64,000 nucleotides of DNA. Source: Elsinoe ampelina. Taxonomy: Eukaryota. Position numbers and translations under genes: made by a program. Below are positions 28,653-63,965 of the stretch, piece after piece (the stretch's first letter is position 1; the number at the start of each line of letters is the position of its first letter). The notes under the pieces were generated by a model. The model made no database searches, had not been told where the DNA came from, and saw nothing but the letters and a program-made list of their open reading frames with translations. Location: assembly GCA_010093995.1 (NCBI GenBank), contig ML992515.1, positions 425,533-489,532 of the forward strand, given 5' to 3'.

Positions 28653-30554
28653 AGTAGCTTAAGTTTAATAATAAGATTTCTTAACTAATTAATCTCTCTA
28701 TAGGTCTTAGTAAGGGTAAGGTATTTAGCCTTAGTACTTAATAATATAATAATCTTCTATAGCTTTAACTTTTAAATAACTAGTATACTAAGTATATAAA
28801 TAATAGTACTAGATATAGATCTTATAGTTAATCTATCTCTAGCAAAGTCTAAGTTAAAGTAAGCCTTAATTATATTAACTAATAGTCTATTAGTCTTCTT
28901 AAAGGTAAGGCCCTTTATAATAGTCCTATTAATATACCTCTAGATCTACTTAGCTATAACTACATAAGCTATAGTTAGATTCTAAAGGAACCTAGCTAGG
29001 TAATTAGTAGTATAGCTAATATTAGGCCTTATGTTATTAGTGTAAGAACTAACGTAGTAAGTACGCTATACTAGCTTATCTCGGAGATACTATTCCCTAT
29101 AGAAGAATAAAATACTCTTCGCCTATATAATAGATAGAGTAGAGATTAGTCTTACGACAATCGAGGGTATACTAGTATAATACCTATTCTACTCCTATAT
29201 ACTTATCTTTCTAGCTTTAATATTCTACCTTCGTTACAATTCTAATCTCTCTTATATCCTATTAGATAGAGCTATACGGATAAGATAGCACTCTATACTT
29301 AGCGCTAGCGAAACAACTAACTACCGCTAGAGTAGTACTAGTATAGATAACTCTCTAATAGCTTAGCTATTAGCGAGACATTTACCGAATTAGCTATAAC
29401 TCTAGAGACAACTCCTATTAAAGATTACTAGGCTAGGGAAGAGCTAGCGCTAAGGCCGCACTATGCTAATATAGCTCCTATAGAAAGTATAGCTAATATA
29501 GGAAATAATACTATATATAAAGCACTTCTTGCTTATATTACTTAGCTCGAGAATATACTTAGTAGTCGCTTTCTAGTTATAGCGCTAGTGCTACGTAGTT
29601 ATTTTAATAATGTATAACTTAACGACATTTACCTAATAAACCTATAAATCGTAAGAGAGTATATACTAAACTTATACTACCTTAAGGCCTTAGAGTCTAC
29701 TATTATAGTAAGAGTTAAGGAATTTATATATATATATAATAATGTCTTTAAGATAGCGCCGAATATCTACTTTAAAGAAGTTACTTAGTACTATATAGCT
29801 ACTAGCTACTTAAAAGGTTAGCTTAGCTATAATTAGAACTCGTATACTAAGAGCGCTAGTGTTATACCCTCGTAGAGCCTAATATAGTTCTAGCTTTAGG
29901 ACTAAGCCTAGAGTTCTAAAAACTATAGTAATAGCTACGTAGTAAAGTTCTTTACGTTGTACTAGCGTAGAGAATAGTTAATTACTAATTTCTATATATT
30001 TCTCGATAGTTATAAGTTCTATATTAAGATAGCGCTACTCCTAGACAATGCCTGCTATATATAGCTTATTACCTATACTACGCCGGAGCTATACTCGGAA
30101 GTACTCTATTAAGGGAACTTACCCCTAATTAAGGTAGAACTTCTAGTATATCTATTCTATTTAGAGTAGAACCTACCGGGCTACTTTAACCCTATATAGA
30201 GGTAGTATAAGTATAACACTAAAGAGAAGACTAATACTTTTACTAAAAGGCCTTACTATAACGAAGACTATAAGGGCTAAAAGAACTAGTAGAGTAGCGC
30301 TAATACTACCTCTATAGCTCTCCGACCTAGTACTACTTACCCTTATAACATTTATAAGAGTCTAGACTATTAGGCGCTAAACTACCTCTAGAAGGACTCT
30401 TTAAAATAGATAGTGTTCTTACGTTTACTAATTCTAAGTAGCTCTAGCGCGATATAGAATATACGCTAAATTTGTACTACGTTACGAAATCTCTAACGCT
30501 AGGGAGCTACGTTAGACTACTTCTAAGTAACTAACTTAGTTTAACTTAGTTTAA

Positions 30555-32700
30555 TGTAATTCCCTAGTTACCCCTAGGTCCTACTTAGAAGTAATGTAGT
30601 TTTTCCCTATAGAAATCTAAAAACCTCTAATGCGTAGTAAATAGAGACGGCCTAATAGTAGATAGTATACTACGTGTATTTCTTATCTTAGTTTAAGCGT
30701 TTCTTAGTTCGCGAAGTAATTAGTTTATGTCTACTCTATAAGCTTAATAATATTAATTATAGAAATATTCTATTACGTAGCTTACCTTGTAGTATATATT
30801 ATATATGTCTATATATTATATAGACCTTATAATTCGTCTACTACGTCTAGAAAATTATATAAGGTCGCTAGAATATATATATTGCTTTATATTCTACCTG
30901 ACGCTACTCTCGATAATAATATATATACTATCTTCTTGTAATTCTATATTCTTATCCCTTAGTTCTATAAAAGTATCTCTATCTAGTAGATGTCTATCCT
31001 CCTTAATGTCTAAGATACTACTACTATACTTTAGGCTAATTCGGTACTATAAGACTAGTTTACGTAGTAGGCCTCTAAACTTCTTATATACGAAGGACAA
31101 AAAGTTTATCTACGTCTATATATCTAAGAAATTCTTCTACTATGCCTCGACCGCTAGCAAATCGCTATTAAGTTATCTGTCTTAGGACAGTATAGCACGT
31201 GTATAATTGAGTAGCCCGGGTAGATGTCGCTATTAAGTCTATCGATCCTTGTATATACTAACTACGACCTAACTTAGTTTAGTAGTAGTTAAAGTTACAA
31301 CAAGGTTGCTGTCTATATTAGGCATCTACGCTAGCTATACTTCTATCGTAGGAGTCGCTATAGAGCGATTTAGTACTTCGCTCCTATATATAAACTAAGT
31401 AGTACCTTAATACGCTATAATAGGGCATTTAGCCTTAATTAGACACTCTTCTCGATCTATTAGTATTAAACTTAAGAAGCCGATAGGAGAATTAAGCTTA
31501 CCTCTTAAAAGGTGCTTAGTAGAAGTATTTCGTACTAGTGCTATATAATAGCTATTACCCCTACTATTAGGCCTGTTATTATATACCTGACTTCTCTATA
31601 AGTTAGTTTAAAGTTAGGTAGGCCGAACTAAAACGAGAAGGTATATATGTACCTTTCCCTTATATCTTCTCTATCTAATAGTCCCTCTATAGTGTTAGTA
31701 TAAAGAGATATATTTAACACTACTACTACGATAGTAAGTCTATTTCTCTCGATATACTTAGTAAAGCTAAGTTTTAGCTAACGAAGGATAAGAACCTATC
31801 TCGAGCTAATCTACGCTAGGAAGTTATTCTAAATGCTTAGTTAGACATAATTAAGTTCTAAAGGTTCTATACGTTTAAATACTAGTGTTCCCTTAGGTAA
31901 GTAGGACTTAACCCTATCTACTTACTTAACTAAGAGTATATAAATCGTCGCTAGGAGGAAGGAAATAAGAAAGAGTATTAGTTCGTTAAAGTAATAGTAA
32001 GTACTAGCTATTATAGCTAAGCCTACACGTTCGACAAAGGCTACTTAGAAGGCTTTATATATTAAAGGACTCCTAAAGCATTTACGCTGCTATATATAAG
32101 TAATTAATTAATAAGTACATCTAGCGCGTACTAAATTGCTATCCTTATATTAGTACTTTCTTTTCTCTAGTAGCCTATATGCCTAATTCGGTAGCTCGCT
32201 ATTCTCTAGCTCCTTAGCTAGCTATTTATAGTAGAGTATCTTACTTACTATTCGTGTAATGTTATTATAACTATAGTAGAGCGCCTCTCGGAGCTATACG
32301 TATGTTAATAAGTAATTAGCTTTAGCTACGTAACTTACCTTACTAGCTATAACTACAGAAGGGTATTTGCCTATAGTCCTCTATAGATAAAGTACTAGTA
32401 GCTAGTTACGGACTAAGCGCTAGTACTATATAATTCGCGGGAGTAGCTATTAATTGTCTAATGTTAGTAATATTGTATTATAATCTACTCTAATAGCTAT
32501 ACTTATACGTAGATTATTACGTACTATCTTAAAAATGTTAAGATACTAGTTTAGTACGTTCTATTGCCTCCGCTTTACTATCTTAACTAGCGTAGAGGCT
32601 AACGTTAGACTGTTCTTATCGGGTTATAGCTCCCTTAAACTCGGATTAAGAGTAGTAATGTCTAATTTATGCCTTCTCCTTTATCTTTAATATTGTGTTT
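30555..32700 (-). pseudogene. Unidentified intron-containing gene relic(s) at the left end of the giant element
   Basis: Minus-strand frames broken only by TAA/TAG. GTAAG..CTAA..TAG intron-like signals near 32.3, 31.6 and 30.76 kb. Confidence 0.35.
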
Positions 32701-35290
32701 ATAGCCTACGTAGTTAGCTTAGTCTCCCTTAATGCTAAAGCCTTACTCTACTTTATCCTAGTTAAAATAACCTAAATTGTTATCTTTAGAATACTTATTA
32801 GTCTTATAGTCTAAGCTATATAGGCGCTAACGTGCCTAAGACATCTTAGTTCGTAATAGTTCTAATAAAGAGATATATAGGTATAAGAGAGTTAGTAAGG
32901 TAGGCTAGAATAATATATACTATAAGGGGGATAGATAGTTATCTTATGTGCGTTATAGTAATTTAGCGTTAGTTTAAGTTAGATAATAGCTTAGTTAGGT
33001 ATTTAAAGTGCATAACTTTCTTCTAATTAGAATTAGTTATATCTGCCTATACCCTAAGGTAATCTTAACTAGTAAGAGTATTAAATTAGACTTGTAGCTA
33101 GGTCTAACTCGTAGAGTACTAATTACTAGAAGCTAAACTAAAAAAGAAAGTTACTTAAACTTACTCGGACTAAATACTTAAACTAAATATAGTATTTGTT
33201 ATTAGGTTAAGTAACAATTAGAGTAGAAATACGTAGAGAGAAATTGTAGATTAAACTTAGACCGAGTAATTATATACTAATTTAAAAGACTATAGGAACT
33301 AGCTGTTATATATATAGATAGGTAGTATAATTTATGTAGTAGCTCTCTTATTAATTACGTTAGTAGTCCCCCCTTTGCCAAGTAGTATATCTTCTAAGTG
33401 CTAAAAGCATTAATTGCTTACTATCTCGCTGTCTAGGGTATCTAAATAAGACACGCTAGATAGAGTAGCTTATCTTTTGCTAATTATGTCGTAATAGAGG
33501 GCGAGTGTTAATTAGCTATTAGTAACTATATATAGTAATAGTAGAGTAGCACTATTAGTGTAGCGTCGTATACTCTTGTTTAATCCGAATAAGCCCCTTA
33601 AGACTCTACTAGTAAGGTCCGTAGAGGCGACGCTAAACGCGTAAAAAGCTTTACTAATATACTTCCTAAGTATATCGTTCTCTTACTAGAGTTATTTAAT
33701 TAAGCTTACGTTCTTCTCCGCTATTAATTGTAATTAGCCTACTTCCTACTAAACAAGTATAATGTCTTCCTCTAGGAGTTGCTATCTATTAAGCTATTTA
33801 GGCTACTAGGTCCTATGTCGCTTTTACTAGCTACTAACGTAATTATACTCTTCTCCGTATATATGTAGTAGAGAGCTTCTAATTTAAGCCTCTAGCTAGT
33901 TAGGGAGACTATTAGAAGACTATGCTTTAACACCTAAATAGATAAGAGAAGCCTATATACTTAATCCTATAGTCTAGATGTTAGCCGCTAGAGAAACAAG
34001 GTTAGTATAATTAATATCTATACTTAGGAGCCTAGCCGAAAGATACTAATAGACCTAATAGATTAATAGTAGGAGGATAGATAAGTAATTCCAAAGGGCG
34101 ATTTAGTTAAAAGATAAGAAAGAATAAAGCGTAGTAAACGAACTAAAACTCTAGGGTTTAGTAGTAGGTATAGCTTAGCGTAGATTGCCCTACTACTTTT
34201 TAGTTCGACTTAGTCTACTACCGGACTATTCTCCTTTATGCTTGCTTCGGCTAGATACTTTCCTTAATCTCGTTGCCTTATTAGAATATAAAGAGGTAAA
34301 CTATGTAATATCTTAGACAAGATAATAGCCTTAAACTAGATAGTATTCTCTATTATAGCGAAATGCGGCGTTCTATTGTCCTTCTAACCTATAACATTAC
34401 TTTGCTTATTATATATATAGTAGTCCGTTATAATCGATATTACTCTTAGCTAATTAAACTTAATATCTATATTCTCCTTAGACACGGCAGTTGTAGCTTT
34501 ATAATATATAAGTAGGAGATCTCTAATTAAGTAGATAGGACGTATCTCTCTATCCTTACGAATTACTAATAGTATATTATCTAGTTAATTAGAGAGTAAA
34601 GGCGCTTATAATTGCAATTAGTAATTCGAGGATTTATTCGAGGTAAGTGTATTAGTACTATTCTACGCTCCTCTAGGCTTATATAATCTTAAGTGTAACT
34701 ATACCCGCCGATGTCTAAAATTAGTATTTATCTTATAGATAAGAGCACGGAAGGTAGCTTAACTATTACTACTCTCTAAGAGCTCTGTTATATACCGAAA
34801 CGTACACCGAATATTATTACTATCTAGTGCTACTAGAAGTACCTTCTTCTCTAACCTTCTCCTATTAGAAATCGACCTAAATGTTCTTCTAACTATGCCT
34901 TTGCCTATTATAATATCCTCTAAGAGACTATATAAGTCTCTATAGCCTTTATCGTTAAGGGCGAGAGCTTACTTAATAGCTTTAATTAAGCATATTACTA
35001 GTTAATAAGAAGTAGATATAGGTGCAGCTACGGAGAGAAGGAGAGAGGTAAGAGTAGAAGAGTAGTAGTATAGGTAGCAATTCGGTGCAAGTGTTACTTG
35101 CGATAGATAAGCCTTAGATCTTAGTTTACTTATAAGAGAGACATACCGGAATTATGCTTAGTTATAATTAGTTAGCCTAAACTAACACTTGTAGAACTAC
35201 AAAGTTTAATATACTAAACTTTATCTCCTCTCGGTTTTATTATATGCTTATTATATAGCAATATAACTATATTACAAATACGATTTGTAA

Positions 35291-36055
35291 TAACGCCTTA
35301 GTTCGCGCTCTCCGCTTATACCGACCTAAACGTAGGTATTAGCGTCCCTAGTATAACCTTTTCTCTCCTTTCTATCTAACCTCGATAATAGCTAGCTATC
35401 TATTATAGTAGATTCCTACGCCTAGTACACTACAATTATTAATTGTTATATATACTATAGCGACTCTAATATTTACTTCCGCCTTACTACCGCTACCGCT
35501 TCTAATAGTATTCTCTATACTAGCTACGTCGTGTTTATAGAATTAACTACTACTAGTACCTAGTAGTTACGCTAGAGCAAATCTATTGTAGTATACCTCT
35601 CTATCTTGCCTACTACGCCGCTATAGGCTTAAGAGTGTATAAGGAGACTCCGATACCTCTTTCTCTCTCCCTGCTACTACTGCCCTCTATAGCTTCCTTT
35701 ACACTAGCTATGTATTATTAGTAGAATTAGCTACCGTCTCTACCTAGTAGCTATAACTAAGCGAATCTATCGCAGAGCATCTCCTAATCTTATAGATAGC
35801 GCTACTAGAGGTTCTAGCGTACGTAAAGAGAGTAGAGAAGCTAGCGTCTACCGGGGATTATCTACCTTATAGTATAAGAATATTAAGGAGAGAATTATAG
35901 AGGAACAACTAGTATAATAAAGAGGAAGAGATAGAGGCATATCGCGGGCAAAGATATATCTACTACCTCCTACTAGACAGTAGCTTACTATAGAGAGCAT
36001 TATAGGCGAAGCTATATTAGTAGTATTCTCTTTTATAATTACTTTTATAGCGGAG
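35291..36055. repeat. Direct repeat A, copy 1 (copy 2 at about 42,405-43,170)
   Basis: About 760 bp alignable base by base. Differences are mostly RIP transitions. Confidence 0.9.
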
Positions 36056-36806
36056 TTTTGTTATTAGTAGCGCTTTATTATAACTTTCTCGCGTTAGTAA
36101 TACACTTCTTTCTATGTAGATTATATATCTATTGCTCTAATCCCCCTTCTCTAACTAGTGAATAAAATCTCCTTGTCTAATACGTATAAGTATACTATAT
36201 ATCTTTCTTTATTCCTTGTTATTTGTCTTGTCTCCTGTCTACTATAAAGACATTAAGGTTGTTACTTTACACGATAATACTCTTTATTAAATAGTCTACT
36301 AGCTGTTTAGAGTATATATAACTTTATATATAGTACTAATATGTAAGTGTTTAGTATAGTTAATTACTTCGACACTAATTTTCTATAATAATTAGCACTT
36401 ATAACATTCTCTAATAGCTACGTTTTGTTTACTTACCTAATTTACGCCCTATAATATTTGTTAGTAGTAAACTAACTTATTTACTTTTAGTTCTAGTATC
36501 GACCTAATATTAGTAATTATTATATGTTACTATTAGCACGTACGAAACATAGACTTAGTTAACCTAGTTCACTTTTAGGTTAAGGCCCGAACTAGATCTT
36601 AGTTATAAGTATANNNNNNNNNNTATAGCATTTTAATATTATACTAGGTAGTAGGTATTTATAATTACTGCTATTTGCTCTATAGCGCTTAACTTACTAC
36701 GCTTAGTTCCTAGCTATATAATCTTAACTCCTCTAACCTTACCTGCCTTATATAACGCCTTTACTAGTAGACATTCTTATACTTATTAAATATATATAAT
36801 AGTACT

Positions 36807-38060
36807 ATACCGCCAAAGATAAAGAAGCTAAAGGTCGCTACTAAACCTATAGAAAAGATTCTACTTAATAACCTTATACTAGCTCTTGTTAAGAATGTAC
36901 TTTATAATAATAATGTTAGTAAGAAATCTATCTAATTCTTCTTTAATTAGGATAACTAGTAATACTCTACTACGTTTACGAGGATAAAGGAAATAATCTT
37001 AAAAGTCTTTACAGAATCTAATATTAAAATTAAGAAACAAGATAGAAGCGAGTTACGTAATTCTAAAGTGCTTAAGACACGCTTTAAAATTGAAACTAGG
37101 CTACTAAATAGCACGCCTAACGATTTTTAGCTCTTCGTTAACTAACTAGATTAGAAAGATCTAGACTAGTTTAAGGAGAACTTACGGACTATAGTTAATA
37201 TTAACAAGATAAAAGCTATATAGCGATTATTCCGAAATACTATATAATTAATAAGGGTAAATCTCCTATTAGTTAAAAGGGAAAGGACAACGTTGCTAGG
37301 CGAAGGAGGTACCTAGAGTCTATATCCTTTAGCTACCTCGTCTATATAGACACTAATACTCTTCTAAGTAAGAATACTGTCCTCGGAGAGATATATAACT
37401 TATATAAAGATAGGTAATAAGAGATTAAATTTATATATATAGCCTTGTTATAGAATATTTAGCTTTAACTAGAGGCTAGCGTCTAATTATGTCTAGATCG
37501 ATATTAAATTCGCTACGATCTAGATTATAGAAGTTATCGAAGCGGACACTATCCCGTATCTAATATTAAGAAAGAACATTCGCGTCTACGACTTAAGAAA
37601 GCCTAGTGCTAGCGAGAATAAGAATTGTTACGTTAATTACTACATTAGTAAGCTTAGGTAGATCCTTAACATTAGAGGTAATTACCTCTAACTCTACTAG
37701 CTTAATGCGTATAACTTTGTATAAGTCTTTACTATTAAAGACTCTTTCGATCTAGACGCCGCTATTACTAAGTATGTTATAACTCTTATCCCCGGTGCCT
37801 ATAAGATCTTTCTCTATCTTACTCCTTCTATAGTATTTATTAAAGATCTTCCTAACTTTATACGAAGTAAGTTTACCCCTTCTTTATTTATCTATATATA
37901 CTAACACTTATAGACAACTCTTATTAATATTATAGTAGCTAGCGACTACTTTCTATAGCCGAGGCTACTATAGAAGAGAACTCGGAAGTGTTTCTTACTC
38001 CTAAGAAGCTTCGCTTTATAGATATTAATACTAATAAGAAGCGTAAAGGAGATTAGTAGA
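36807..38060 (+). pseudogene. Unknown gene X, paralogous to about 44.4-45.25 kb
   Basis: Long frame broken only by RIP-type TAA/TAG stops (MPPKIKK...KKRKGD). The segment ATCTTTCTCTATCTTACTCCT near 37.8 kb matches ATCTTTATCTATCTTACGCCT near 45.05 kb. Confidence 0.45.
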
Positions 38061-38299
38061 AAGAGAATATTATAATATAGAACATTTAATACCCGCAATG
38101 GCGACTAAACTACTAAAGGTAAGAGCGGCGATGCTACTATATTTTATTTACTATTACGTTATTTACGAAACTATTTAGTTCTTAACTAATAAAGTTTTAT
38201 TTAGCTTGTTCTATCTCTAAGAGGCTATAGCCTCTATAAATTCTATAATTTCTATTATTGTTATTAGAAGTAAACTTACTTAATAGTTCTATAACTATA

Positions 38300-40720
38300 G
38301 CTAGATAGATTCTAACCGACCTAGCGACTTAGTTTGGAGTATAGTCTTACTTTATATAGTTTTAGGAGAATATAGCTCCTTCTCCCCTACTAGAAGAACA
38401 TAGCCTGTTTAGACTATAGCATATGCCGCCGAGGCGCTATTTATATTCCTACTGCTTTAATAGCTTAAAGAATATTATATAAGCTACTATATACCTAAGG
38501 CCGGCTATCTATCTAGATAAACACGATCTCTCGGAGCTCTCTAATACCTCTCCTAAGTTCTACTTTGTTACTAGTAACTTCCTATAGCTTGCCTAGCACG
38601 CTATAATATATTAGAGTAAAGAGAGTAAGTCTAAGAAGATAACAACTTACTTCTACTAACATAAGATTAACATTGGCATTAAAAAAGTAATATATTCTTA
38701 ATATTATTAATAATAGAAACGAAGTAATACTACTATAGATATAATAGACTAGGGCGTTTAATAATAAGTAAAACAAGTTAGTAGAATAGGATCTTGTCCC
38801 CTATTATAGTAGAAGCGATAGTACAAGTTTTAGTTCTATACTAAACTTAGAGTTAACTAAATTAAATAAGAATAGTATAGTGCTATAAAGGAGCGCGTAG
38901 GTGTTACTACTAATATAGTTATTAGGCTTTACTCTTATATACTAGCAAGGTTTACACGTAGCATACTTAGAAGTTAATAAAGAATTCCCGCTAACTATTA
39001 TTAGTTCTAGCTACTACCTTCTAATAAATAGTAGAGACGCTTTAGATTAGGTTACGCCTCCTAACTAAGTATAAACTTAAGTTAGTTTAGTTAGCCTAAA
39101 ACTAGAGACGAACTTATTTTATGTTAGGGCAGATAAGTCCTTTAAGAGAACGCTATAACGCCTAGCTGTCTTATACTTCTCCTTGTTAGGCAATTGCTAC
39201 TTAGTATTAGTATAGCTCTACTAACTATATACGTAGGTTTAGTATTAAGCTTAATATTCGATATAAGGTTAATTATACTAAGAGAAAGAGATTAGATGCC
39301 TACTACTTAACAAAGGCAGCTTTAATATAGTAGAGCTAGTCTCTATCTATAGGCGGTAAAGACGTATCTATTGCAAAGAATAAGAGAGAATAAACTAGAT
39401 ACGATTTAACTCGATATTACTATATAATATAATAAGAGGTAGCTCTCTATCTATGCGAAGGTAATATAAGAATAATTAAAGCCTATTATAGCCTTCTTTT
39501 CGTAAATATAATAGTCACTTCTCGTTTCTAGTTTAAAATCTTTATATTAGTCCCTATATAGATAGCTAGACTTCTATTTATTCCTCTTAACATGTATCTT
39601 AACCTAATTATAAAATATCTAGTAGCTACGCCTACTTTTATGTCTTATTAGGTTTAAGATATTCCTAACTAGAACTCTAAAGTTTTAATCGAGGATAGAT
39701 ATCTTAATTCTTTAGTAGCACTATATATATAAATTGCTTCGTATATAGAGGAGTATACCTTAACTACGATTATAGAGACGCTATATAGGAGAGAGTAGTA
39801 CGGAATAATATCTATATTTAACAAGCAAAAGGAACCTAGAGGTAATTATACTAGATGTTGTTGCGAGCTTACTTTATTTACTTTGCCGCCTCGCTAGTAT
39901 AGGAAGAGTAATAATATTAATCGACATTATAGTAGGGGCTATAGACACTTCTTAGACTTTATACTCCGAGCCGAAGCAGTAGACAAGTATATAGCTAGCG
40001 CTACGCTAGATTAGAAATATAGGGCCTTTATATTATTATCCCTAAGATTATAGAACAGAAAGCCTATAGTTAGAAGACTAAGAGGTAGTAAGGGATTATT
40101 CGTACGTATAACTCTATAGCGCTAGTAGTAGCTATAGTAGTTAGTTCGACTTAGTTAGTCTAGTTCGGTCGTTACTAATAAGAGAGCTATATCTATAATA
40201 ACTTAAGAGAATCCCGAATAGCTAAGCTATTAGGATCGATAAGAGTACTAAAGTCGTCGTTGTCGATTATAGAGAGAAGTCTATAGTAAGCCGCGTAGGT
40301 ATTATTAGAGTAGCTATGTTAAAGTAAACTTACTTCGAGAAAACTACGCTAGTTAGTTCGTAACTAGGAATAGTATATAGTTCTATAACAAGTAGAGTAC
40401 TAGTACTTCTGCCTTAATAGTGTAACTTCGCTTAACATAAAGTTAGTATATAGATCTAATTATTATAGTAGACTTCCGATAGTGCCTTAGAGAATATAAT
40501 ATTCGCTAGTATAGATATAATAATAGCATTTACGCTTAAGCTAACTATACTATCCTATCGGCCGAAGAAGTAAGTTAACTATAGCTACGATACACTAACG
40601 ATAATATAGAAGGTTATATAAGATAATATAGCGAAGCGGACGAACTAAAAGCATAGTTATTTAAACTAATAGAGGAGTAATAGCAAATTATTAGTTTATC
40701 CTTATTAAGATCGGTTAAGG
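38300..40720 (+). pseudogene. Divergent paralog of the SNF2-like gene with degenerate ATPase motifs
   Basis: Collinear patches shared with 45.3-48.1 kb (AAGCTAACTATA, TAATATAGAAGGTTAT, downstream TCACCTAAAAA..TTTAGTTTAGCG) and an intron-like stretch at an equivalent position. Confidence 0.5.
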
Positions 40721-41200
40721 GAACGCTTATAATTTTCACCTAAAAAGTACTAGTTTTAGTTTAGCGAACTAATCGACTACCTCTAATAGATTAACTATAG
40801 GCATAAACGACCTAATGTTATATAGCCGAGGCGTCTTTATATACTACTATTACTATTTTTTTATAGAGGCTATTTATAACTAACTTATTATAATACTAGC
40901 GACAAGTTAAGACATAAGATAGCAAAAGCTATAAATTGTTTACTAGCTAAAATTATTATGCCTACGCGGCACTCCCTGTTTTACAATTGCTATAAAAGCC
41001 TCTACTAAGGACAATAGCGCGACAATAGCTAATTAAGCACAGTATTTAACATTGTCCTTAAGTAAGGAATAGCCGATAAACCCTGTCGCTCGGATATATT
41101 AGAGTAAACTCTGTCTTAACGTGTCTAGTACTATAGCGTAGATACAATTTTAGCTTTAGTCCGCCGACGCTATATAATAGCTTAGTTCTATTAGCTCTAC

Positions 41201-41669
41201 TACGAATTACAGTAAATAAGAACTAAACTAAGTAATAAGGTAGAAATAATAGCCTATAGCTAGCGTAGAGTGTTCTTCCCTCTTCGCCTACTATATAGTA
41301 TAGTATAGTAGATAATCCTCTTAGTCTCTTTACTAACCTTAACTCTCGACCTCTAGCATATAGAACAGATAGTAATAGTAATAGTAGGCTTAATAGCGAC
41401 GTATACGAGAAAGAGGAGAGTATAGACGAGGTTATAATAGAAAGTATACACAAGAAAGAGTAAGTAATTATAGTAAGTATAACTAGTAGCACGTCTATAG
41501 GGTAGAGTACTAGGAGGTTATCCTTATCTAGTAGAGCTATATCCGATTATACTACATTCGAGATAGTAACTAGTATACTAGCTAGTAGCGAGGAGTTAGT
41601 AATAGATATAGTTTATTCTTAGTTTACGTTAACTAATCTTATCTAGATCTCCCTAAGTCTATAATATAT
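41201..41669. repeat. Direct repeat B, copy 1 (copy 2 at about 48,553-49,021); corresponds to the 5' part of the transposase gene
   Basis: About 470 bp near-identical apart from transitions. ORF-track entries 41223-41492 and 48587-48961 are homologous. Confidence 0.9.
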
Positions 41670-45200: not shown

Positions 45201-45299
45201 GTCTAGGAGGAAGAGGAAGAGGAACCTCTAGCCCCTTTATCTCCGGCTAAGCACCTACTACTACGTAAACCTACCCCTAAGAAGTAACCTAGCTCTCTA

Positions 45300-48060
45300 C
45301 TACCTAACAAGAATAATACTACTATCGACTATTGTCCTACTTAGGTGATAGAAGACAAATACTATAAGTAATACCGAGACAGTAATTAGTATTCCTTTAT
45401 AATTATACCTAGCAAGGAGCAAGTAAGGTACTATATTCTATTAGTCCCTAAGACGCTATCTATACCTATCTTAGCGCTTGTAACTTGTATATTTAATAAG
45501 ACTCTTAGTAGCTCGAACTTCGTTAAACTTTATACTATAAACAACAACGACAATAAGCAAACTAGTAATAATCTAGCTAACTAAAGCTTTATCCCTATAG
45601 GTACTAGAATCGATTACTAGTCCGAAGAGTTCTAGGAGAGAGTCTGTAACTTTATAGGCTTTAAGAAAGATATCTACTTACCGAACACTAGTATATAGTG
45701 TTTTAGTTAGAATAAGAAGTATCTAGTCGAGGTAGCATAGATGTACTTAGCGCTTATTACACTTAAGAAATACCTCGAAGGCTATCTAGTATTTATATTT
45801 ACACATGAGATAGAATTTAGAAAGACTCTAATAGGACTCTTCTTTCTCTTACTAATTTAGAACTTAAATAAAAAGGTTATCTAGGATACTAACTATACTA
45901 CTATACCTAAGGATAAGTAGAGTAAGTACCGGAAGGTAAAGACACTAGTCGACAAGCTATAGCTAGATATCACTTCTACGGATACTATTAGCTATAATCT
46001 AATTGTTAGCGGATTAAACGTAATAAAACAGTAGGCGTAGGAGACACGGAAGTTTATACCTAATATAAAGGTCGTCCTATGCTAGAGAAGAATATTCTAA
46101 GCTATGTAAGAATATAAGTATAGTAATATATATAATATAGACACTTTAATTTGCAAAGAGGATCTACCTATAGGCTACTACTAATAGGAGTCTTAGCTAA
46201 TAAATAAGTCTAGTAAGCCTATTAACACTATTATAGTCTTATAACTAGTCGATATACGTAAGCGACACCCCTAGACCTTATAGATAAATAATTAGTTCTT
46301 CTTTACTACTTGCGACACTATAATCTACTACTTCCTTAGTAAGAACAACATAAACGCTAAGGATTAGAACTTTGTTCCTAAGAGACAAGAGAGAAAGCTA
46401 GGGTCTACGCCTATAAACTAGGCCGCTATTATCTTTAATAAGTTCTATTAGGTTACTAGCTAGAAGACATAGACCTAGTATTATCTAGGAATGCTACTAG
46501 GGAGGCCTTTTATACTAGGTATAAGCGGGACGCTATTTATTAAGTGCTTAAACGTAGTAGCGTTCTTAATAGCGGCTATATATAAGGACTTTAGATTAGA
46601 AAAGCTTAATGTAAATAGAAGTAGAATAGAAGAATTTAATAAGAACTATATCTATAAATCTAAGTAGGAGCTAACTAAGGCTAAGGACAACAAACATTAA
46701 GTAACACTAAAGACAATACTAGATAAGACTTAATAAGCTATTGCTAATAAGCTTAACTTCTAAATAGTATCGGACTATGCCTTTGTAATTAACAAATAGT
46801 ATAAGGCAAACAACAACTCTAGTAAGTTTAATAAAAAGGGAAGTATATAGTTTATAGAAGAGATTATAGTAATAGTCGGTAAATAGAGTACTATTCTTAC
46901 GAATATTCTTATTAAGATAAATATAGACTACATCTAGAAACCTTTCGATACTACTTCTAGTCTACTAGCTATTAGAGTCCTACTATATTCTATCTTCGAC
47001 CTAGAGATCGCTATCGAGGATAAGTATCTTTATAGTCTTATAAATATATAGAAGAAGATTGAACAGGATATAGATAAGAGTATATAAGAGGTAATTAATA
47101 GGTAAAAGAACAAATCTAATAAGCCTAAAGTAATATTAGAGACAATCCTTAATAAGAAGACTAAGAAGTAAATACTAAGCCTAGTTACGCTGCTACTACT
47201 TTTCTCTATGTTTCTCGCTCTTATAGATATATTCTAGAATAATCCCGTAGTTATAGAAGAGTTTGGCGACTTTACTATTAAGTTTATCTACGAAATTATA
47301 TATAACTCCTCGGAGACAGCGCTATAGTAGTATATAGACAAGATCTACGCTAGTCCTTAGATAAAGGTCCTTTATAGTGTTATTTCTAAGATTATTAAGT
47401 AAAACGTCTCCTATTCGAAGGAGCTAAAGAGGTAAGTAATTGTCTATACGTTTATACTGTTAGTACTAGCGGTCGCTACGATAGTTAGTTTAGTCTATTT
47501 AGTCTATTTAGGTTATTGCTAATAAGGGCATAGTATCTAAAATAGCTCGAGAAGCACCTAGACGGCAAAGTAATTAGAATTAATAAGGATACTAATATAG
47601 TTATTGTCTACTATAGAATAACATCTATACTTGCCTATATAGATATTATTAACATAGCTATGTCTAATAATACATTTATTAAACCTAATAGGCCGGAAGG
47701 CTTAAGGATCTTAATTGCCTAGGGTAGAGCTATTAAGACTAGTCTTAATCTAAACCGCTTTAATACTATAATCTTGCTCGATATAGCGTTAGTGTTACGA
47801 TCTGTCCTTTAGTGTCTAGCTTAGGTCCGTAGGAATATTAAGTCTTAGAAAGCTAACTATATAGAGGCGTTTATAATAAAGCTAATAGCTTCGTTCTATA
47901 GGCCTCTAGAATAGCTTAATAGTAGACAGGGTAGGCTATTAATAATATAGAAGGTTATCTACAAGGAAATAGAGAAGTAGAGAGTAAAGATCTAGAAACT
48001 TTAATAAGCTATAGCGAAGAAGAACATAATTGTTATAGATAATAATTAAGATTGCTAGAT
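45300..48060 (+). pseudogene. SNF2-like superfamily-2 helicase/ATPase relic
   Basis: RIP-corrected motif I HEMGFGKT (45,804-45,827), motif II IIFDEFH (about 46,428-46,448), motif III GMSGTP (about 46,518-46,535) and motif V TGLNL..VILLD (about 47.74 kb). Ends are approximate. Confidence 0.78.
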
Positions 48061-48599
48061 AATAGTCTAACTATATCACCTAAAAATGTAATTCTTTAGT
48101 TTAGCGGACTAATTTAGTTCCCTATGTATATTAAACTATCTTTTAGGTCACCTAATATAATATAGCATCTAAACATTTCCTACTTCCTACTATTGCTAAA
48201 ATTTAGCTAGCTAACTCTAACTACAAATTTAGATCTTAAGCGATAAATATAGATATACTAAGGCAAATTAGTAAATGCTTAGCCTATAAGAAGATTATAT
48301 AATCTAGTAGAGGCCTTATCTAACATCTGCCGTATTACTAGAGGAGAGAGCTACTAATAAGTAATATAGTATAAGTCTTACTAGAGTAACGTAGCGATAG
48401 ACATCTACGTAGAGACAATACTAGTAACAATCCTCGCTTGTTTAATAAGGGAGAGCGCTTACTGTCTAATAAAGGCCGATAAGGTAGTATTACTAGTAAT
48501 ATATAATATAGTCTACTAACGCTAAATAACTCGCTAGTCTACTTTACTCCGCTACGAATAACAGTAACTAAGAATTAAACTAAACACTAGAGTAGAAAC

Positions 48600-51500
48600 G
48601 AAAGTCTATAGCTAGTAGAGAGTATCCTTTCTCCTTTATCTACTATATAGCATAGTATAGTAGACAATCCTCTTAGTCTCTTTACTAACCTTAACCCTCG
48701 ACCTCTAGTACGTAGAATAGATAGTAATAGTAATAGTAGGCTTAATAGCGACGTACACGAGGAAGAGGAGAGCATAGACGAGATTATAATAGAAGGCACG
48801 CACGAGAAAGAGTAAGTAATTACAGTAAGTATAACTAGCGGCATATCTATAGAGTAGAGTACTAGGAGGTTGTCCTTATCTAGTAGGGCTATATCCGATC
48901 GTACTACGTTCGAGATAGCTACTAGTATACTAGCTAGTAGCAAAGAGTTAGTTATAGACATAGTTTATCCTTAGTTTGCGTTAACTAATCTTGTCTAGAT
49001 CTCCCTAAGTCTATAATATATACACTAACACCGACGATGAACTAAATCACAATTAGTTAGGTAAGACTTAACTAAAGAAAGCCTTTATTAGCGGCATAGA
49101 CGTAGGTCTTACCTAGTAGCTTATAAAGGAGAAACTTAGTAGAGCCGTAATTACGTAATTACTTAAAGACCTACGTATATAACCTCTAGTAGAGAGCCTT
49201 AGTTAGCGAACTACGAATAAACTAACAGAGAAGATAGAGAATTTAGATACAGGCGGGGGTATTAACGGCTAGTAGACCTTAAGCTTTATACTAAACACTA
49301 ATCGTAGGCCTAAAAGACACACGTTCTAGTATCTAGATATTCTTATAGCGATACGCTTCTTGCTTAGCTATTGTAGTTTCGTAGTAGACATAGACTATAG
49401 CTTATATAGAGTCTTTACGGAAGCTGTCGAGAGTAAGCTACTACGACAAGTATATACTAAAATAGCAAGCAGCGACTAGTAGTAGGACATATAAAAGCGA
49501 CTTAGGATACTAGGGGCTACTATTATCCTATTAATCGTCGCGAGTAATTAGACCTAGGTAATAAACTATTAAGGAGATCTTATAGCATACACTATCTATC
49601 TATTATTAGGTAACCTAAAGGCGGAAGCATATAATAGCAACTACTAGCCGGGGTAGTTACTAATCGGCTTACTTTCTATTATTAAAGATAGTAGCAATAT
49701 TATTAAGGAGAAGACCTACTACGCTTGTATAAAGAAAATCTTTAACGCCGTTGTTAATTGCTACTTAAGAGAGGGCAAAACAATCTTCTATATAGATAGA
49801 AAGAGGTAGAGGTGCTTCCCTATACTTGCTGCTATACCTACGGATTACGCCGAATAGGTTACTATAACCGGTATAAAGTTACTATATTATTGTATAAGTT
49901 GCCTAATCGGTAAGGACGAAAGAGAGGATCTAGTAGTTACTATGCTATTCCGAACTTACTACTCTATATAGCAATAATAGCGCTTATAGAGAGAAGTATA
50001 CGAGAGTTAGTAGCGGAGCAAGAAGATAGATATAAGCTCTTAGGTTTATATAGTTAGTTACTTTGTGTAGGATCTTCCGTATACTAATATTTACTACGTA
50101 ATAGTACTAGATATTCTATACTAACTTCTTAAAGGCGTTTTAATATACGTCTTACGCTAGACTTAAAAATTGCTCTAGGATTTAATACCTATATAGAGAT
50201 TACTACGGTATATAAAGGCTAAAGAGACTATATAGCGAATAGGCCACTAGCGCTCGGTAAAGAAGATTATACTTAATATTATTAACAAGCGTTTCGATAG
50301 TATACTAGTGTTTTCTAGCATTCGATACTTCTTGCACTACTTAGCTATTAAGTAATAGACAGGTTAAGAGTAGAAGAGTATTATGCGCTAGATGCTCCTA
50401 GTATTTATGCTACTACTCGAGGAGGTTAAGGCGCCTTAAGCTATTAAGTTTATACGCGCACTAGTTAACTTTATATTACTAGTAAACTATAAGACCTATA
50501 ACAACGACATACTCCGGTATATTAACCTTACGCTCTTTAGAATAAACAAGTACAAAGAAACCTTCTAGGCCTATTATAGCAATAGGAAAGAAGAAGGCAA
50601 CTTTAACTTTCTAAAATAGCACTTAATAACACATTTTTCGAAGGCTATTTATAATTTTAGAGTAGTTACTAGCCTCGATTCTAATTATTTAGAGTATAAT
50701 TATGTATACTTTATTAAGGACGCCTTTAAACTTACAAATAAGAAGGCTAGATAGGAAGACTAGGTTACTACTTATAACACTAAACTAGTAAACATGTTAG
50801 TAGCATTCGATAACCCCTCGAAGTTAGTTAGGCTATCGGCTACTAAACTAATTAAGATCTAGAGTACGCTAGTTAGCATAAGCGATACAGTGAATGTCAC
50901 TTCTTAGTTTAGCTAGCCTAGCGCTAAGGAGAGAGCTATATAGCGTATAGTAAGAGAACTAAAGGCGCTTATTAATATGCTACCTAGGCTATTACTATAG
51001 TAAGTAATAGCGGTGTTTGTCCGCGAGGCTTGTTAAGGTATAGCCGATATAGGCTCTAACTCGAGAACTAAATACTCTAATTAGTTTAATACTAAACTAG
51101 ATCTCGATAGACTCGAACTAGATTCTTCCTAGGTAAGCAACCTCTGTATTAAGTTCTACTATTCTTTAAAGTGTAGAAAACTATCCGACTATAATCCTAA
51201 TAATCCTAATACGGACGAATAAGACTTTATCTAGTGTATAACTAAATAGTAGAGGATATATAGCAATAAGAGGCAAGACTAGCTCTAGGTATAAGAATAG
51301 ACAACGAACGACAAAGGCACTAACGGAGTATTACCTAATAGCCTATAAGGTAAGTTACTAGCTCGTATTATATTTATAATAACTATAGAGGATAGCTTCT
51401 AGTCTAGTAGATCGGGCCGGCGTTAACGCCTATACTATATAGGAGCGCTAGTAGATCTATATTAGCCTACTTAGCCGGATAGAGTAGCTAATCGAGAGTA

Positions 51501-51792
51501 TAGCATAACACTAATTAAGCCTTAGATAAATCGACGTACGCGAGCTAGACGGAACACTCTTACTAGTAGACGTGTCTACTCTACCTCGTAAATCTACTAT
51601 AGTATCTACGTCGTACTAGTAGATAAAACAAGGCTATATAGCCGGATATACATTAATAACATAGCCGACTTTAACATATATAATATACTATAGAATAAGT
51701 TATAGGAGTCTAAATAGCTCTACCTAGCTAAGGCTTCGAAACAAGAGAGGTTAAGATCCCTAGGCGTAGTTAGTAAGCGTAGTAGGCATTAA
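48600..51792 (+). pseudogene. Plavaka-family transposase relic
   Basis: RIP-corrected translation gives QVYTEMASGDWWWDMQ (TAG TAG TAG at 49,477-49,485), PGATIIPLIVASDQTQ, IGNL, RCFPILAAIPTDYAEQ and DILHQLLKGVL, which are hallmark Plavaka motifs. Start position is approximate. Confidence 0.85.
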
Positions 51793-52039
51793 CGAAGCTA
51801 GAGTACTCCTTTCGTAGCTAGAATAATCGTCTCTTACGTTAATAGCCTAACGCTTAGGTATACTTAGGTCAACTACTAGACTATGTTAGGTAGGCGAGTT
51901 ATAATAACTTCCGTAGGTATTACTCTAACTAGTTAGTTTATACCTGTGTGTTATTAGGTTAGTCCCTAAACTATATAGAGTTCGCGGCCTAAGGTGCCTT
52001 ATATAGTTTTTACGCTAAAGAGTTAGTCTATTCCTTTAC

Positions 52040-52450
52040 TAATTATAATAGCTTAGGAAATTATAGCGAGGCGTTATAGAAGTTAGTCTTTAAGATGCTT
52101 AAGACATACCCTAAGTATTTAGCAACAGCAGTAAAAGACTTAGGTTAGTAAGTTATCTTTAGGTTAGTTTCACTAACGGAGTTAGCAGTCTAAGAGGAAA
52201 GTTTATTCTCTATAATAAGTTTACTAATAAGACTCTAATATAGATAATAGCGCTTTACTCTATTTGCTATTATATCGTAGGGATCTACTTAATACTACTA
52301 GAGTAGTTACTAAGGACTTATTCCTTTCTATCTAACGGACAAGATCTATAATAACACTAGCTTAGAAGACCTACTAGGGAACATTCTTGTTAATCTCTAT
52401 ATATATACTATGCGCGGGAAACGAGTCGAGGAAGAAGCTACCCTTTAGTA
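52040..52450 (+). pseudogene. BTB/POZ-like domain relic (C-terminal part)
   Basis: DKIY(D)NTSxEDLLGNILV(D)LY. DNA-level match to 53.90-53.99 kb. Confidence 0.45.
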
Positions 52451-53319
52451 TAGTAAGTAGCCTCTTCCTTGTTCTCTAAAGCCTCCTCTATATCTACGTA
52501 GGTTATAAGTATTTCCTTATAAGATTATTAGTACATAATATGTATATAACAAATCCTATTTATAAGATTATATACTAGATTATCCTATATGCGCTATTAC
52601 TACAACTACTACTTAGTGGTAGTAATAGTAGAGCGGCGGGATATAGTAGGAAAAAGTGTTATTATACTTACCTCTAAGAGGGGAATACTCTCTTTCTTCC
52701 CTATACCTTTCTTCTCGCTCTCCGCTATAGTAAGGTATACTATAACTAAAGCTACTACTACTGCTTCCTCTATAACTACTATTACTCGTACACGGCTACG
52801 ACTATAGGTTATTACTAGAAGCTTAGTACGTATCGGAGTGACCTTATCTTTAACATATAGTAATAAAGTGCTACGATCTTAACCCGGACACTGCCTCTAT
52901 TACCTCTCCGACGACTACTATAACTAGCGCCGAGAGCTAGTAAGGTAAGAAGCGTACTACCCCTACCTTCGCTAGTGTCTATAGCTATGCTAGCATTAAG
53001 CTCGGCAAGGCAGAGGAGAAGGGTAAGAAGCAGAAGGAGCCTCTTATTATTACTAATTACCTCCTTGCCGATAACCTTGTAGATAGGTAGTTAGAGTAGA
53101 TCTTAAACTTCCTAGAAAGAGTATTTACTTCTCTGCTATAACTGTCTTCGAGCTGTCGTTTAGACTGCTATATCCTTAGTACTATCTCTAGGGCTGCTTA
53201 GACACTATACCGATATTCGTCGGACCTTACTTTTCTAGGTAGTCTTTTATAGCTCTAGAATTATCCTTCTAGTAGATATACTATTCCGTGTTAGTAGACA
53301 AGGGATTAGCTTAGCCTAA

Positions 53320-54003
53320 ACTAAATGTCTATTACATTTCCCGTACCTGTCTATGTTAGTGTTAATCTTCTTAGAATAGGCTATAGCCTTACTACTATAG
53401 CTACTATTAACGTAGTATATCTAGCTCCTATTATTATTCTCTTCCTATATTACCGATAACTTCTAAGTACTAGAATAGGTCTATAGGTATTTATACTTAA
53501 TGTCGTAACTATACTTAGCTATAATAATTAAGTCCTTCTTAGGAAAAGCTTTCTTACATCTACGAGTCTAAGTTATAAATGCCCCTCTATAAGCTTATTT
53601 TACATTATTAACGATATAGGCCGCTAGATAGTAGAACTCGTAGGCTATAGGGCAATAGAGGCGCTTTTCGTTAGTGTTAACCTTTGTTACTAGCTATATA
53701 GTCGCGCGAAAGTGCTTGTCTTTAGAGACATCTAACACTTTAATAGACAACTAAGTAGAGACGATAAAATAGAGTTAGAATAAGTATATATTAGTTTAGG
53801 GTTTTATATTGTAAGCTAGAGAATAAGGCGTATAATGTCTGCTTTCCTATTATAGCAAAAGCGCTTCTATACCGAGCTTTAATAATATAGAGTATATACT
53901 TCCTCTCTATCTAGTAGATAAGATCTATAATAACACTAGCTTAGAGAGCTCTCTCCGGAAGATGCTTGTTGATTTCTATATCTATTCTAGTCGCGGCAAG
54001 TAG
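53320..54003 (+). pseudogene. BTB/POZ-like domain gene relic
   Basis: LVDKIY(D)NTSxESSLRKMLVDFY resembles the IYxNTxxxSPLRxLLVD motif of fungal BTB proteins. Confidence 0.55.
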
Positions 54004-54031
54004 AGTATTTGTCTAATCTAAGGCACGTATA

Positions 54032-54097
54032 GTGCATTTAACTAAAATTAGGTAGGTACGGTGCGTTTAACTAAATTTAGGTAGGTACGGTGCATTT
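54032..54097. repeat. Subterminal tandem repeat, 29-bp unit, about 2.3 copies
   Basis: GTGCRTTTAACTAAAWTTAGGTAGGTACG at 54032 and 54061, with a partial copy at 54090. Confidence 0.88.
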
Positions 54098-57000
54098 GTA
54101 GCGACCTAACATAGTTGAACTTAGTTTAATACGGAGAAACCTAATATTCTAACTCTCTAGTAGCGCCGATAGTAACTTTATTAGCTAGTATTTTACTATA
54201 CACTATTATATCGCTATCGACCCCTTAGTAGTATACTAAGTACACGGCTTAGACAAATACGAATTAACTACCTATAGATATACTAAGTTAGCCTTTACTA
54301 TTAAGAATAGTAAAGGAATAACATAGGCGTTACGCTAGTAGTTCGAAAGTGTTAATATAACTAGTTACAATCTTATATTAGGCCTACTATAGCTATTGTC
54401 CTATAACTTCGAGATTTAGTAGAGCGCTAGTATATAGAGGCATTATACTAGCGCTATATAGGTGTTAATCCTAGATATACCTTTCTTCTCCTAGGAGCTA
54501 AATTAGTCTAACGCCTAGCTCTATCTAGTATATATATACTAGGACGAACCTAGCGCCCCGACCCTACTATACTAGCTTAATAACTACGTAGACGTTTTAA
54601 ATAAGAGCGTAGTAATAGTACTACCGGGTAATAATTTTACTTACTCTATTAATATTAAAGAGAGAGAATAGCTACTCTAGGGACCTATCTACTCCCTTAG
54701 TAAGAAGAAGCTTTAGGTACTTCGAGAGTATATAGATAATAGCTTAGCGATAGGTTAACTCTAGTATAGTACTAGCCCTACGGGGTCTTCTATTCTATTC
54801 GTTCCTAAGAAGGATAGTTCGCTACGCCTATATATTAACTATTATAGGCTAAATAATGTTACTATTAAGAACTATTACCCCTTACCCCTAATTACTAAGA
54901 TGCTTAATTACATTAAGGGCATATACTTGTTTAGTAAGCTAGACCTTATAGATACCTACTATAGAGTATATATCTAGCATAGCAATAAATAGAAGATAGT
55001 ATTCTACTATTGCTATAGCTACTTTAAATATACTATTATACCTTTTAGCCTTACTAATGCCCTAGCTATATTCTAGACTTATATATATTAGTACTTAAGT
55101 AGCTTAGTAGACTACTACTATATTATATACCTAGACGATATTCTAATCTACGCTAGCGACGAGTAAGAGTATTACTAGGCTATTAGGAGCGTACTAGACT
55201 ACCTACGTAAGAATAGCCTCTATATAAAACTAAAGAAGTATATCTTCGAGATAATATAGGTAGTATTTCTAGGCTATGTCGTTAGTAGTAATAGCGTTAT
55301 AATAGAGTAGCTCTAGGTATAAGCCGTCGCTAACTAGCTTACCTCTACTAGCCTTAAGGAGTTATAAACCTTTCTTAGATTTACTAATTTCTACTATTGA
55401 TTTATTAAGAGCTTCTCCTATATAGCGCTACTACTAACTATACTTATATAAGAGTTAGTCTAAGGGAAGTAAGTAGGCCTATTTCTATAGAGTAACGACA
55501 TATTATAGGCCTTCGATAGGCTTAAAGCTACCTTTACGTAAGTGTCTATACTATGCTACTTTTTATTAGGTAAGCCCCTCCGGCTCGAGACTAACGCTTT
55601 AGATTTTATACTCTCTAGAGTAATTTCCTAGTAAAACAAAAGCGATACTCCTACGCGACACTAGCACTCTATAGCGTTCTAGTCCTAGAAGCTATAAGGT
55701 ATAGAACTAAACTATACTACCTACGATAAAGAGCTTCTTACTATCGTAGAAGTAGCGTAGTACTAGCGCTAATACCTACTTAGCGCTACTACTCTAATTA
55801 AAGTCCTCTCTAACTATAATAACCTTAGGTATTTCCTAACTACTAAGAAGCTTTTATAGCGCTAGGCCCGCTATACTAAGGTACTAGTATAGTTTAATAT
55901 TATTATCTAGTACTATAGTAAGAAGACTAACTTAGCTAATAGTCTATTATATAGGCCTAACTACTATAAGCATAAAGAAGATATATAGAAAGAGCGCTAT
56001 ATATTAGTCTCTCTCTTAGAATAAGCGTTATAAACGCGAAGTAAAGGAGTTATACCTATATCTATTATAGACAAGAAACCTAAGGCTAGTAGGGCCTAGA
56101 AAGACAGTAATAAAGCTAGTATAGCTTATATACCTTAAACTACTCCCTAACGTAACGCGCTTATATAATTCTAGCGTACCTCTAGAATAGCGCCTATAAG
56201 TCTACCTATTACCTTAGGAGCGCTATAGCTATACTAAGAAGAGTTAGAGCCTCTAGAGTAAGAAGAGTAGCGCCTAGAGGACACTTACGCGGACCTTTCT
56301 CTAAGCCTAACTAGTAATATTAAATCGGAACGATATATGTCTACTCTAGTATTCTAGGACGTTCTACTACTCGCCTAGGAGACGCTAGAGAGCTAAGGGT
56401 AAGAAGAAAGCGTAACGCCTATATAACTCTAGGATACTCTTAGTAGAGAGCCTACTATAATTTTAGACTAGAGTTAGTAGATTATATATCTCTACGCTAC
56501 GTAAGTACTAGTAAATAAGACTATATATACTTCTTTTACTTCTATATCGCTCTAGGACCTTATCTATATAGTATAGTAAAGAGACACCTTTACTTATAGT
56601 AAGAAATAGAAACTTCTAAAAGAGAGAACCTTAACTAGTAACAGTGCTACCCCTAAGTAGAGCCTGTCTAGTAATAGCTTACTCCGGAATAGAGATAGGG
56701 TATATATCCTAGAAGAAACTACCTTAAGAGTAGAGCTTATATAGTATAATTATAACAACTCTTTAGGGAGTTACTTTAGCTATATAAAGACCTATCTTAA
56801 TATAAGAAGGAAGTACTAGTAGCTAGGTATGTCTATTACTATAAAAGCATATATCGAGCGCTACGACAGCTACTAAAGGCATAAGGTAACGTAGTATAAG
56901 CCTTATAGCCTCCTATAACTCTTACTAATCCTGCCTATACTCGAGGCCTTATAACACTAGTTACTTAATTTTATTACTAGCTTACCCCTAGTAGAGCTCC

Positions 57001-63774: not shown

Positions 63775-63916
63775 TGTTATAACTAGCAAATCGGATCGAG
63801 AGACGTATGTTTTATTTAGAGAGTTATAATAACCGATTTATCTACTGTGCGTACGCTGACTCATCAGTACCAGTTCTTCAGTGCCAGAGAAGCTGTACCA
63901 GCCTTCTATTACAACA
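63775..63916 (-). repeat. Copia 5' LTR (142 bp)
   Basis: Direct repeat of 19150-19291, followed by TSD CGATC. Confidence 0.95.
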
Positions 63917-63965
63917 CGATCTGGTCATGCACGAACAAACTCTCTTTCCATCATTCTCAACCAAA

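Follow-up and report, generated by a model that had tools for sequence, protein, structure and literature searches.

A Plavaka transposase relic and its duplicated upstream module in a 23.6-kb block that splits a Ty3/Gypsy element of Elsinoe ampelina

Plavaka is a family of DNA transposons whose original naming is reportedly owed to Iyer and colleagues. In the description given by Kojima 2025 (PMC12730594), Plavaka elements are flanked by target site duplications (TSDs) of 2-3 bp and end in TGT..ACA (PlavakaA) or in CATCA..TGATG (PlavakaB), and TSDs of 2-5 bp are given for the CMCT/EnSpm-like clade in which they are placed. Giant Plavaka elements of 17.4-19.1 kb with the genes PAG1-3 and tandem repeat arrays have been reported in red algae (Bostrychia, Chondrus), the domains described for PAG1-3 being an N6-adenine methylase plus SET and a ParB-like domain plus 2OG oxygenase (bioRxiv 10.1101/2025.02.11.637652). 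Starships are the cargo elements of Pezizomycotina that carry a DUF3435 captain, a tyrosine recombinase (PMC11162782, PMC10104507); longest direct repeats of 6-16 bp and a size cut-off of 15 kb are stated for them (PMC11162782). The present work concerns a block of 23.6 kb in Elsinoe ampelina that interrupts a Ty3/Gypsy element, carries the relic of a Plavaka transposase gene and is marked throughout by repeat-induced point mutation (RIP). It lies in a window of 64,000 nucleotides (assembly GCA_010093995.1, contig ML992515.1, positions 425,533 to 489,532 of the forward strand), whose own numbering is used below.

A single transposon protein was recognized in the block and it is of the Plavaka family, as a preliminary description made by eye had proposed. 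The gene relic occupies 49022-51850 on the + strand and was found by Pfam, by homologue alignment and by a RIP-aware scan. The match to PF18759 (Plavaka) at nucleotides 49216-50142 covers positions 5-317 of the 325 of the profile, with E=1.5e-28 and 100 bits against a cut-off of 26.3. The relic also aligns in one frame with residues 35-938 of a Plavaka-domain protein of 984 aa (P0001; E=1.5e-137, 31% identity), and it aligns as well with its closest named relative, a hypothetical protein from Polychaeton citri, an ascomycete. It has no frameshift and 80 stops in the 980 codons scanned (49063-52002); within the 894 codons aligned to P0001 the stops number 71. Residue D192, invariant in the homologues, is N in the relic according to the P0001 alignment. 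In a calibrated RIP-aware protein-to-DNA scan of the whole window in six frames, the relic scored 666 against 37 for the reversed protein used as control, and nothing elsewhere was clearly above this control, one match near nt 33018 reaching 39. Judged from its sequence, the transposase would belong to the EnSpm-like RNase H-fold DDE class and would represent one complete gene. Nothing in the block is functional now.

The host of the block is bounded by two long terminal repeats (LTRs) of the TG..CA type, on the + strand at 29041-29238 (5') and 59771-59968 (3'), with the 5-bp TSD ATTAG directly outside both of them (29036-29040 and 59969-59973). Alignment of the two LTRs over their 198 nt gave 186 identical positions and 12 transitions, with 0 transversions and 0 gaps. 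On the pol side (54131-59770, + strand) Pfam domains were detected on the + strand in the order reverse transcriptase, RNase H, integrase and chromodomain, namely RVT_1 (54801-55277, E=3e-12), RT_RNaseH (55572-55892, E=8e-15), Integrase_H2C2 (56721-56885, E=8.5e-4), SH3_Tf2-1 (57626-57805, E=3.6e-11) and a sub-threshold Chromo (57860-58009, E=0.084). The LTR pair, the TSD and the ordered pol domains are those of a Ty3/Gypsy chromovirus and therefore point to a single such element split by the block. The gag side of the internal region (29239-30542, + strand) gave no Pfam family and no homologue and shows purine periodicity in one phase. Its gag identity is assigned by position only.

An exact direct repeat of 13 nt, AACTTAGTTTAAT, stands at the two junctions (30543-30555 and 54118-54130) and is present exactly twice in the 64 kb; the likeness of the junctions reaches an imperfect 25 nt (left, 30531-30555) with 2 transversions. 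The block between the two copies extends over 23,562 nt (30556-54117). Its arrival as an insertion into one Gypsy element, already claimed in the preliminary description, is borne out by the LTRs, the TSD, the 13-nt repeats and the pol domains; the bounds given there (30530-54129) enclose the block, with a left edge placed about 25 nt off. When the repeat offset of 23,575 nt is subtracted, the pol and gag sides share one codon phase in purine/pyrimidine code. The chance of this is 1 in 3, and the restored gag-pol phase lends weak support to the outer boundary.

The window is gene-bearing over 1-19 kb, where the GC content is 0.50-0.57, and continues as an AT-rich island of 45 kb in which it is 0.17-0.38. 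In the island (20-64 kb) TpA/ApT is 1.7-2.9 and (CpA+TpG)/(ApC+GpT) is 0.12-0.37, compared with 0.44-0.89 and 1.1-1.5 in the genic part (1-20 kb). Within the block, the second index is 0.23-0.32 in the 2-kb bins from 32 to 54 kb, and it falls to 0.19 between 30 and 32 kb, the bin that contains the left junction. RIP is called at TpA/ApT above 0.89 and (CpA+TpG)/(ApC+GpT) below 1.03. Both indices lie beyond these values over 20-64 kb, which is a fungal repeat island affected by RIP, and the bins agree with the earlier statement that RIP runs through the whole block. RIP yields transitions only, and the comparisons therefore used a purine/pyrimidine recoding and a scoring that tolerates transitions.

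Upstream of the transposase gene the block holds two copies of one module. Unit 1 (35215-41732, + strand) and unit 2 (42330-49021, + strand), the latter contiguous with the transposase gene, were recognized by purine/pyrimidine BLAST, by RIP-aware tiles and by translated comparison. They are the sole significant internal repeats of the block and are direct, collinear and 6.5-6.7 kb long. RIP-aware tiles of unit 1 against unit 2 reached a score of 974, the control maximum being 64, and the translated comparison was collinear with E=1e-24. Two patches with sharp edges are near-identical between the units on the + strand: patch A (35256-36046 in unit 1, 42370-43159 in unit 2), in which 35515-35814 shows 92% identity and no transversions, and patch B (41157-41671 and 48509-49021). 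Transversions amount to 0-1% in the patches and to 15-26% in the interiors of the units, where identity is 0.54-0.66 against 0.54 for an unrelated-sequence control. Beyond patch B, the homology continues into the first ~90 nt of the transposase region, the 3' end of unit 1 reaching about 60-90 nt into it. The crossing of the homology into the transposase start suggests that module plus transposase is the ancestral arrangement and that the copy in unit 1 was truncated at about codon 30. Since the Gypsy LTRs differ by 0 transversions, the units would have diverged long before the Gypsy element integrated and would not have been duplicated in place. The interior of the block thus holds two old paralogous copies of one module and is not a simple string of genes.

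The other parts of the block are less informative. The left 4.66 kb (30556-35214) is RIP-mutated and has weak periodicity, no internal repeat above control and no content that was assigned. A spacer of 0.6 kb between the units (41733-42329) contains two 100-nt tandem copies (42042-42242) that are identical in purine/pyrimidine code, and it has no match elsewhere in the block. Inside patch A, a tandem repeat of ~183 nt is found in both units (35398-35831 and 42512-42944). The tail of 2.27 kb located 3' of the transposase (51851-54117) holds a direct repeat of 105 nt (52321-52425 and 53900-54004), which was rejected as a nested terminus because it stops short of the 3' end. In the same way, GTTTAATA was tried as a mark of sub-element boundaries and dropped, being common (25 sites) and lying inside the unit homology.

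An SNF2-type ATPase relic, two BTB-like segments and at least four further gene relics had been reported as cargo. Fifteen long frame translations spanning all six frames of the block, with X at stops, were scanned with Pfam, and one of the fifteen gave a family, Plavaka only. Another 44 short windows were searched at E up to 10; they comprised six-frame windows of the left 4.7 kb and of the unit 2 interior, as well as selected periodic frames. None of the 44 gave a credible family, the lone listing being NARF at E=0.21; no Pfam family was found in the 18 six-frame windows of the left 4.7 kb (30556-35261), in 18 short windows of the unit 2 interior, or in the tail (51851-54117). As a positive control, the same method recovered 6 families in the equally RIP-mutated Gypsy element, so a relic of the conserved SNF2_N/Helicase_C pair should have shown. 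This pair had no Pfam match in the long frames or short windows, and the SNF2 candidate (45300-48299, + strand) gave 0 matches by phmmer against PDB at E up to 10 and none in a homologue search. For BTB, no match was obtained with Pfam or with HMMER against 1.84 billion representatives, and both unit copies were without a PDB phmmer match at E up to 10. Neither the ATPase relic nor the BTB-like segments are therefore detectable by these searches. DNA methylase, SET, ParB-like and 2OG-oxygenase domains gave no signal in the 15 long frames and 44 short windows of the block either. DUF3435 or any other integrase family was absent from the long-frame scans of the block and from the left-end windows, in agreement with the earlier remark that DUF3435 could not be found; by that test, the block is not a Starship.

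Purine periodicity of three bases, which is invariant under RIP, peaks at 36.9-38.4, 43.8-45.3, 45.3-47.7 and 52.8-53.7 kb with chi-square values of 11-28 (2 degrees of freedom); the corresponding values are 7-11 for the transposase and 11-13 for the Gypsy reverse transcriptase. These peaks, present in both units and in the tail, suggest relics of open reading frames (ORFs). The best periodic frames gave nothing in a word-based homologue search, Pfam, HMMER and PDB phmmer, and no strand was assignable. The further gene relics of the preliminary description are partly borne out by these peaks, to which neither a homologue nor a strand is attached. Stop density per frame failed to separate coding from non-coding sequence, even in known genes, and the ORFs of at least 70 aa in the block were rejected as genes, being low-complexity products of RIP. 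When all six-frame tiles were compared by tblastn with 80 Plavaka-bearing metagenome loci (805 kb), the transposase was the only part of the block to be matched, with Gypsy pol appearing incidentally; the unit, left-arm and tail sequences had no match in the flanks of these 80 relatives.

The ends of the block read GTAATTCC... and ...CATAGTTG. They are not of the CA..TG type, neither TGT..ACA nor CATCA..TGATG was found there, and the exact direct repeat of 13 nt stands where a TSD of 2-3 bp is described for Plavaka. A terminal CATCA could be disguised by RIP as TATTA. Tests for inverted or LTR-like repeats stayed at control level, whether they were made on the ends of the block or of the units, on an element consisting of the transposase alone, on the spacer compared with the two arms, or with 40-nt probes of the termini. 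The block resembles Plavaka as described (PF18759; PlavakaA/PlavakaB, PMC12730594) in its full-length domain-bearing relic, collinear with members of 984 aa, and is unlike that description in its 23.6 kb, its duplicated upstream module, its 13-nt flanking repeat and its other termini. One of the metagenome loci (L049:25-9645) holds a PlavakaB-type element of 9.6 kb that seems complete. Its inverted ends are 13 nt long (CATCAGCAAAAAA), its transposase gene has two exons, and the ORFs in the roughly 6 kb upstream matched no Pfam family; its layout indicates that long upstream regions occur in the Plavaka family. The RIP-degenerate form of its terminus was not enriched, with 11 matches against 9.3 expected.

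With moderate confidence, the block is read here as a RIP-dead composite of Plavaka-family DNA that existed beforehand and entered the Gypsy element in a single step, at a staggered break of 13 nt. The observed anatomy, single transposase, paralogy and 13-nt flanking repeat are the ground of this reading. The core consists of one complete transposase gene with a 6.7-kb module upstream and a 2.3-kb tail downstream. Directly upstream and in the same orientation lies a much older paralogue of the module, which breaks off some 30 codons after the start of its own transposase, and the left-end 4.7 kb adds no assignable content. Because the modules differ by ~20% transversions and the Gypsy LTRs by none, the composite would already have been a unit when it reached the gag-pol region of the Ty3/Gypsy chromovirus, which would be the younger of the two. 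Entry would have taken place in one step at the staggered break and, given 13 nt against 2-3 bp, probably not by canonical Plavaka cut-and-paste. RIP would then have inactivated everything. Several points weigh against this account. No ends, TSD or inverted repeats are assignable to any sub-element, so movement of the composite as one is inferred from divergence only, and sequential nesting would leave the same outer repeat. The interior identity of the units is close to that of unrelated sequence, which makes their transversion ages rough. Gene relics in the units are unproven, as + and - frames align equally well between unit 1 and unit 2 and a transversion codon-phase test for past selection showed no bias or was without power. 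Finally, a 10-N gap (36614-36623) falls inside unit 1, and the contigs of public sequencing runs, about 100 nt long, neither confirm nor refute the long-range order, and likewise the copy number.

In the preliminary description, the whole 23.6 kb formed one giant cargo transposon mobilised by Plavaka, the transposase cutting the outermost ends. Such an element would account for the presence of one transposon protein in the 23.6 kb, for the one exact repeat that bounds the block, for the fairly even RIP index and for the periodicity peaks, which hint at further ORF relics on the side of the transposase; it would also have precedents in the red-algal giants with accessory genes (10.1101/2025.02.11.637652) and in the 9.6-kb relative with its long upstream region. 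The block is indeed like the red-algal giants, as described in that preprint, in its large size and its link to Plavaka, in the length of its non-transposase region, and in having tandem repeats inside and possibly extra ORFs, and is unlike them in its fungal host and in being a dead copy. The giant transposon is nevertheless judged unlikely, since a repeat of 13 nt far exceeds the TSDs described for Plavaka (2-3 bp) and for its clade (2-5 bp; PMC12730594), the ends GTAATTCC and CATAGTTG are not CA..TG-type and form no inverted repeat above controls, Pfam, PDB and HMMER searches gave no SNF2 or BTB cargo, and the unit, left arm and tail are unmatched around the 80 relatives. Of the picture of a large multi-gene mobile element, the insertion, the Plavaka relic, the RIP throughout and the distinction from Starships by DUF3435 are supported, and the named cargo, Plavaka-like ends and a simple gene string are not. 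Smaller elements, mostly non-autonomous or unrecognisable, may instead have inserted one inside another after a first entry into the Gypsy element, and this sequence of events is kept as a tentative possibility. The surroundings are a classic nest (the Gypsy element at 21154-28653 and the outer pair 19131-19292 / 63757-63917), and the sharp-edged near-identical patches of the units are what related family members might share. Against such a nest, searches inside the block detected neither TSDs nor LTR pairs nor inverted repeats, no clean decomposition gives one element both outer ends, and no reverse transcriptase or second transposase relic was seen, though the domains of the Gypsy control were detectable.

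The 13-nt repeat could also be the recombination core at which a tyrosine recombinase moved a Starship- or Crypton-like element whose captain is lost or unrecognisable. Thirteen nucleotides fall within the 6-16 bp stated for the longest Starship repeats and the block exceeds the 15-kb cut-off (PMC11162782), so that a flanking direct repeat (13 nt) and the size (23,562 nt) are both as in Starships, and this class needs no inverted repeats. Like the Starships described, the block is large, is inserted in an ascomycete-type genome capable of RIP, and has a direct repeat but no clear inverted repeats at its ends; unlike them, it has no captain that could be found, and its lone transposon protein is a DDE transposase located near the 3' third and not at the 5' end. 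With no DUF3435 or integrase family at either end and 0 families in the 18 windows of the left 4.7 kb, this origin is barely credible. An assembly artefact, in which the order or the duplication of the units would result from scaffolding errors in AT-rich repeat, is held to be highly improbable. Four N runs, all in the AT-rich island (19591-20330, 36614-36623, 60321-60460 and 61746-62372), are scaffold gaps or withheld stretches and indicate a scaffolded assembly. Two public runs from one sample of the same organism share 0.55-0.58 of sampled 31-mers, and over 34300-54299 their contigs are short (~100 nt), branch into many variants and differ from the window almost purely by transitions; these variants could stem from further near-identical copies, from alleles or from RIP-type polymorphism of another isolate. 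The artefact would be in keeping with the gap in unit 1 and the three further N runs, with such fragmented and branching contigs, and with a weak joint from 35479 to 42597 that has 25 nt on its shorter side. It is opposed by the Gypsy TSD pair and the 13-mer pair, whose copies lie on opposite sides of the gap and thereby tie the two contigs to one locus, by the divergence of the units (interior identity 0.54-0.66), too great for collapse or mis-joining, and by the coverage of 30 of 30 bins in both public runs.

Nested transposon clusters are known in the RIP-affected AT-rich isochores of ascomycetes, for example in Leptosphaeria maculans. The island is like these in its drop of GC content from 0.50-0.57 to 0.17-0.38, in its extreme RIP indices and in its LTR elements within LTR elements, and is unlike them in that the inner block lacks recognisable boundaries of separate elements. 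A second Gypsy-like element lies at 21154-28653, with LTRs at 21154-21372 and 28426-28653 that show 184 identical positions, 30 transitions, 5 transversions and 9 gaps. This element predates the split Gypsy, and its pol (23302-24669) shows a likeness of 77% to 54630-55999 when both are read in purine/pyrimidine code. Around the whole 44.6-kb island stands an LTR-like direct pair (19131-19292 and 63757-63917; 140 identical positions, 20 transitions, 1 transversion and 1 gap), which may represent the LTRs of an outermost third element enclosing both nested Gypsy elements. The outermost AT-rich flanks, presumed to be the interior of this pair, gave no Pfam family in 18 windows. In the GC-rich flank (1-19000), at least five stretches have strong coding periodicity (about 1.2-5.1, 5.4-7.5, 10.5-12.3, 12.6-15.0 and 16.5-18.9 kb) and resemble ordinary genes next to the repeat island.

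The claim that such an element is distinct from every known kind is overstated, because red-algal Plavaka giants of 17-19 kb with accessory genes are already published (10.1101/2025.02.11.637652). The block appears as a fairly ordinary transposon graveyard rather than as a clear new giant element, and it provides a well-documented dead element of the Plavaka family in a RIP-affected ascomycete-type genome. It also calls for caution, as domain calls made by eye on RIP-mutated DNA, such as those of SNF2 and BTB, may fail in profile searches. Comparison in purine/pyrimidine code and the map of purine periodicity are simple readers of RIP-degraded DNA, to which both are suited because they ignore the transitions that RIP causes. 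Should other copies share the same ends, a route driven by a DDE transposase would exist besides Starships for blocks of more than 10 kb in this fungal group, and the two upstream ORF relics would become candidate accessory genes, for instance with an anti-silencing role like that proposed for TET/JBP or for PAG. The block, or its 11.8-kb core (42330-54117), might represent an undescribed ascomycete lineage of Plavaka with about 6.5 kb of orphan upstream accessory ORFs, tandem or composite "macrotransposons" and an unusually long duplication of 13 nt on integration, although we consider this rather improbable. If true, it would be a fungal counterpart of the red-algal giant Plavaka with accessory genes and a DDE-based alternative to Starships in Pezizomycotina.

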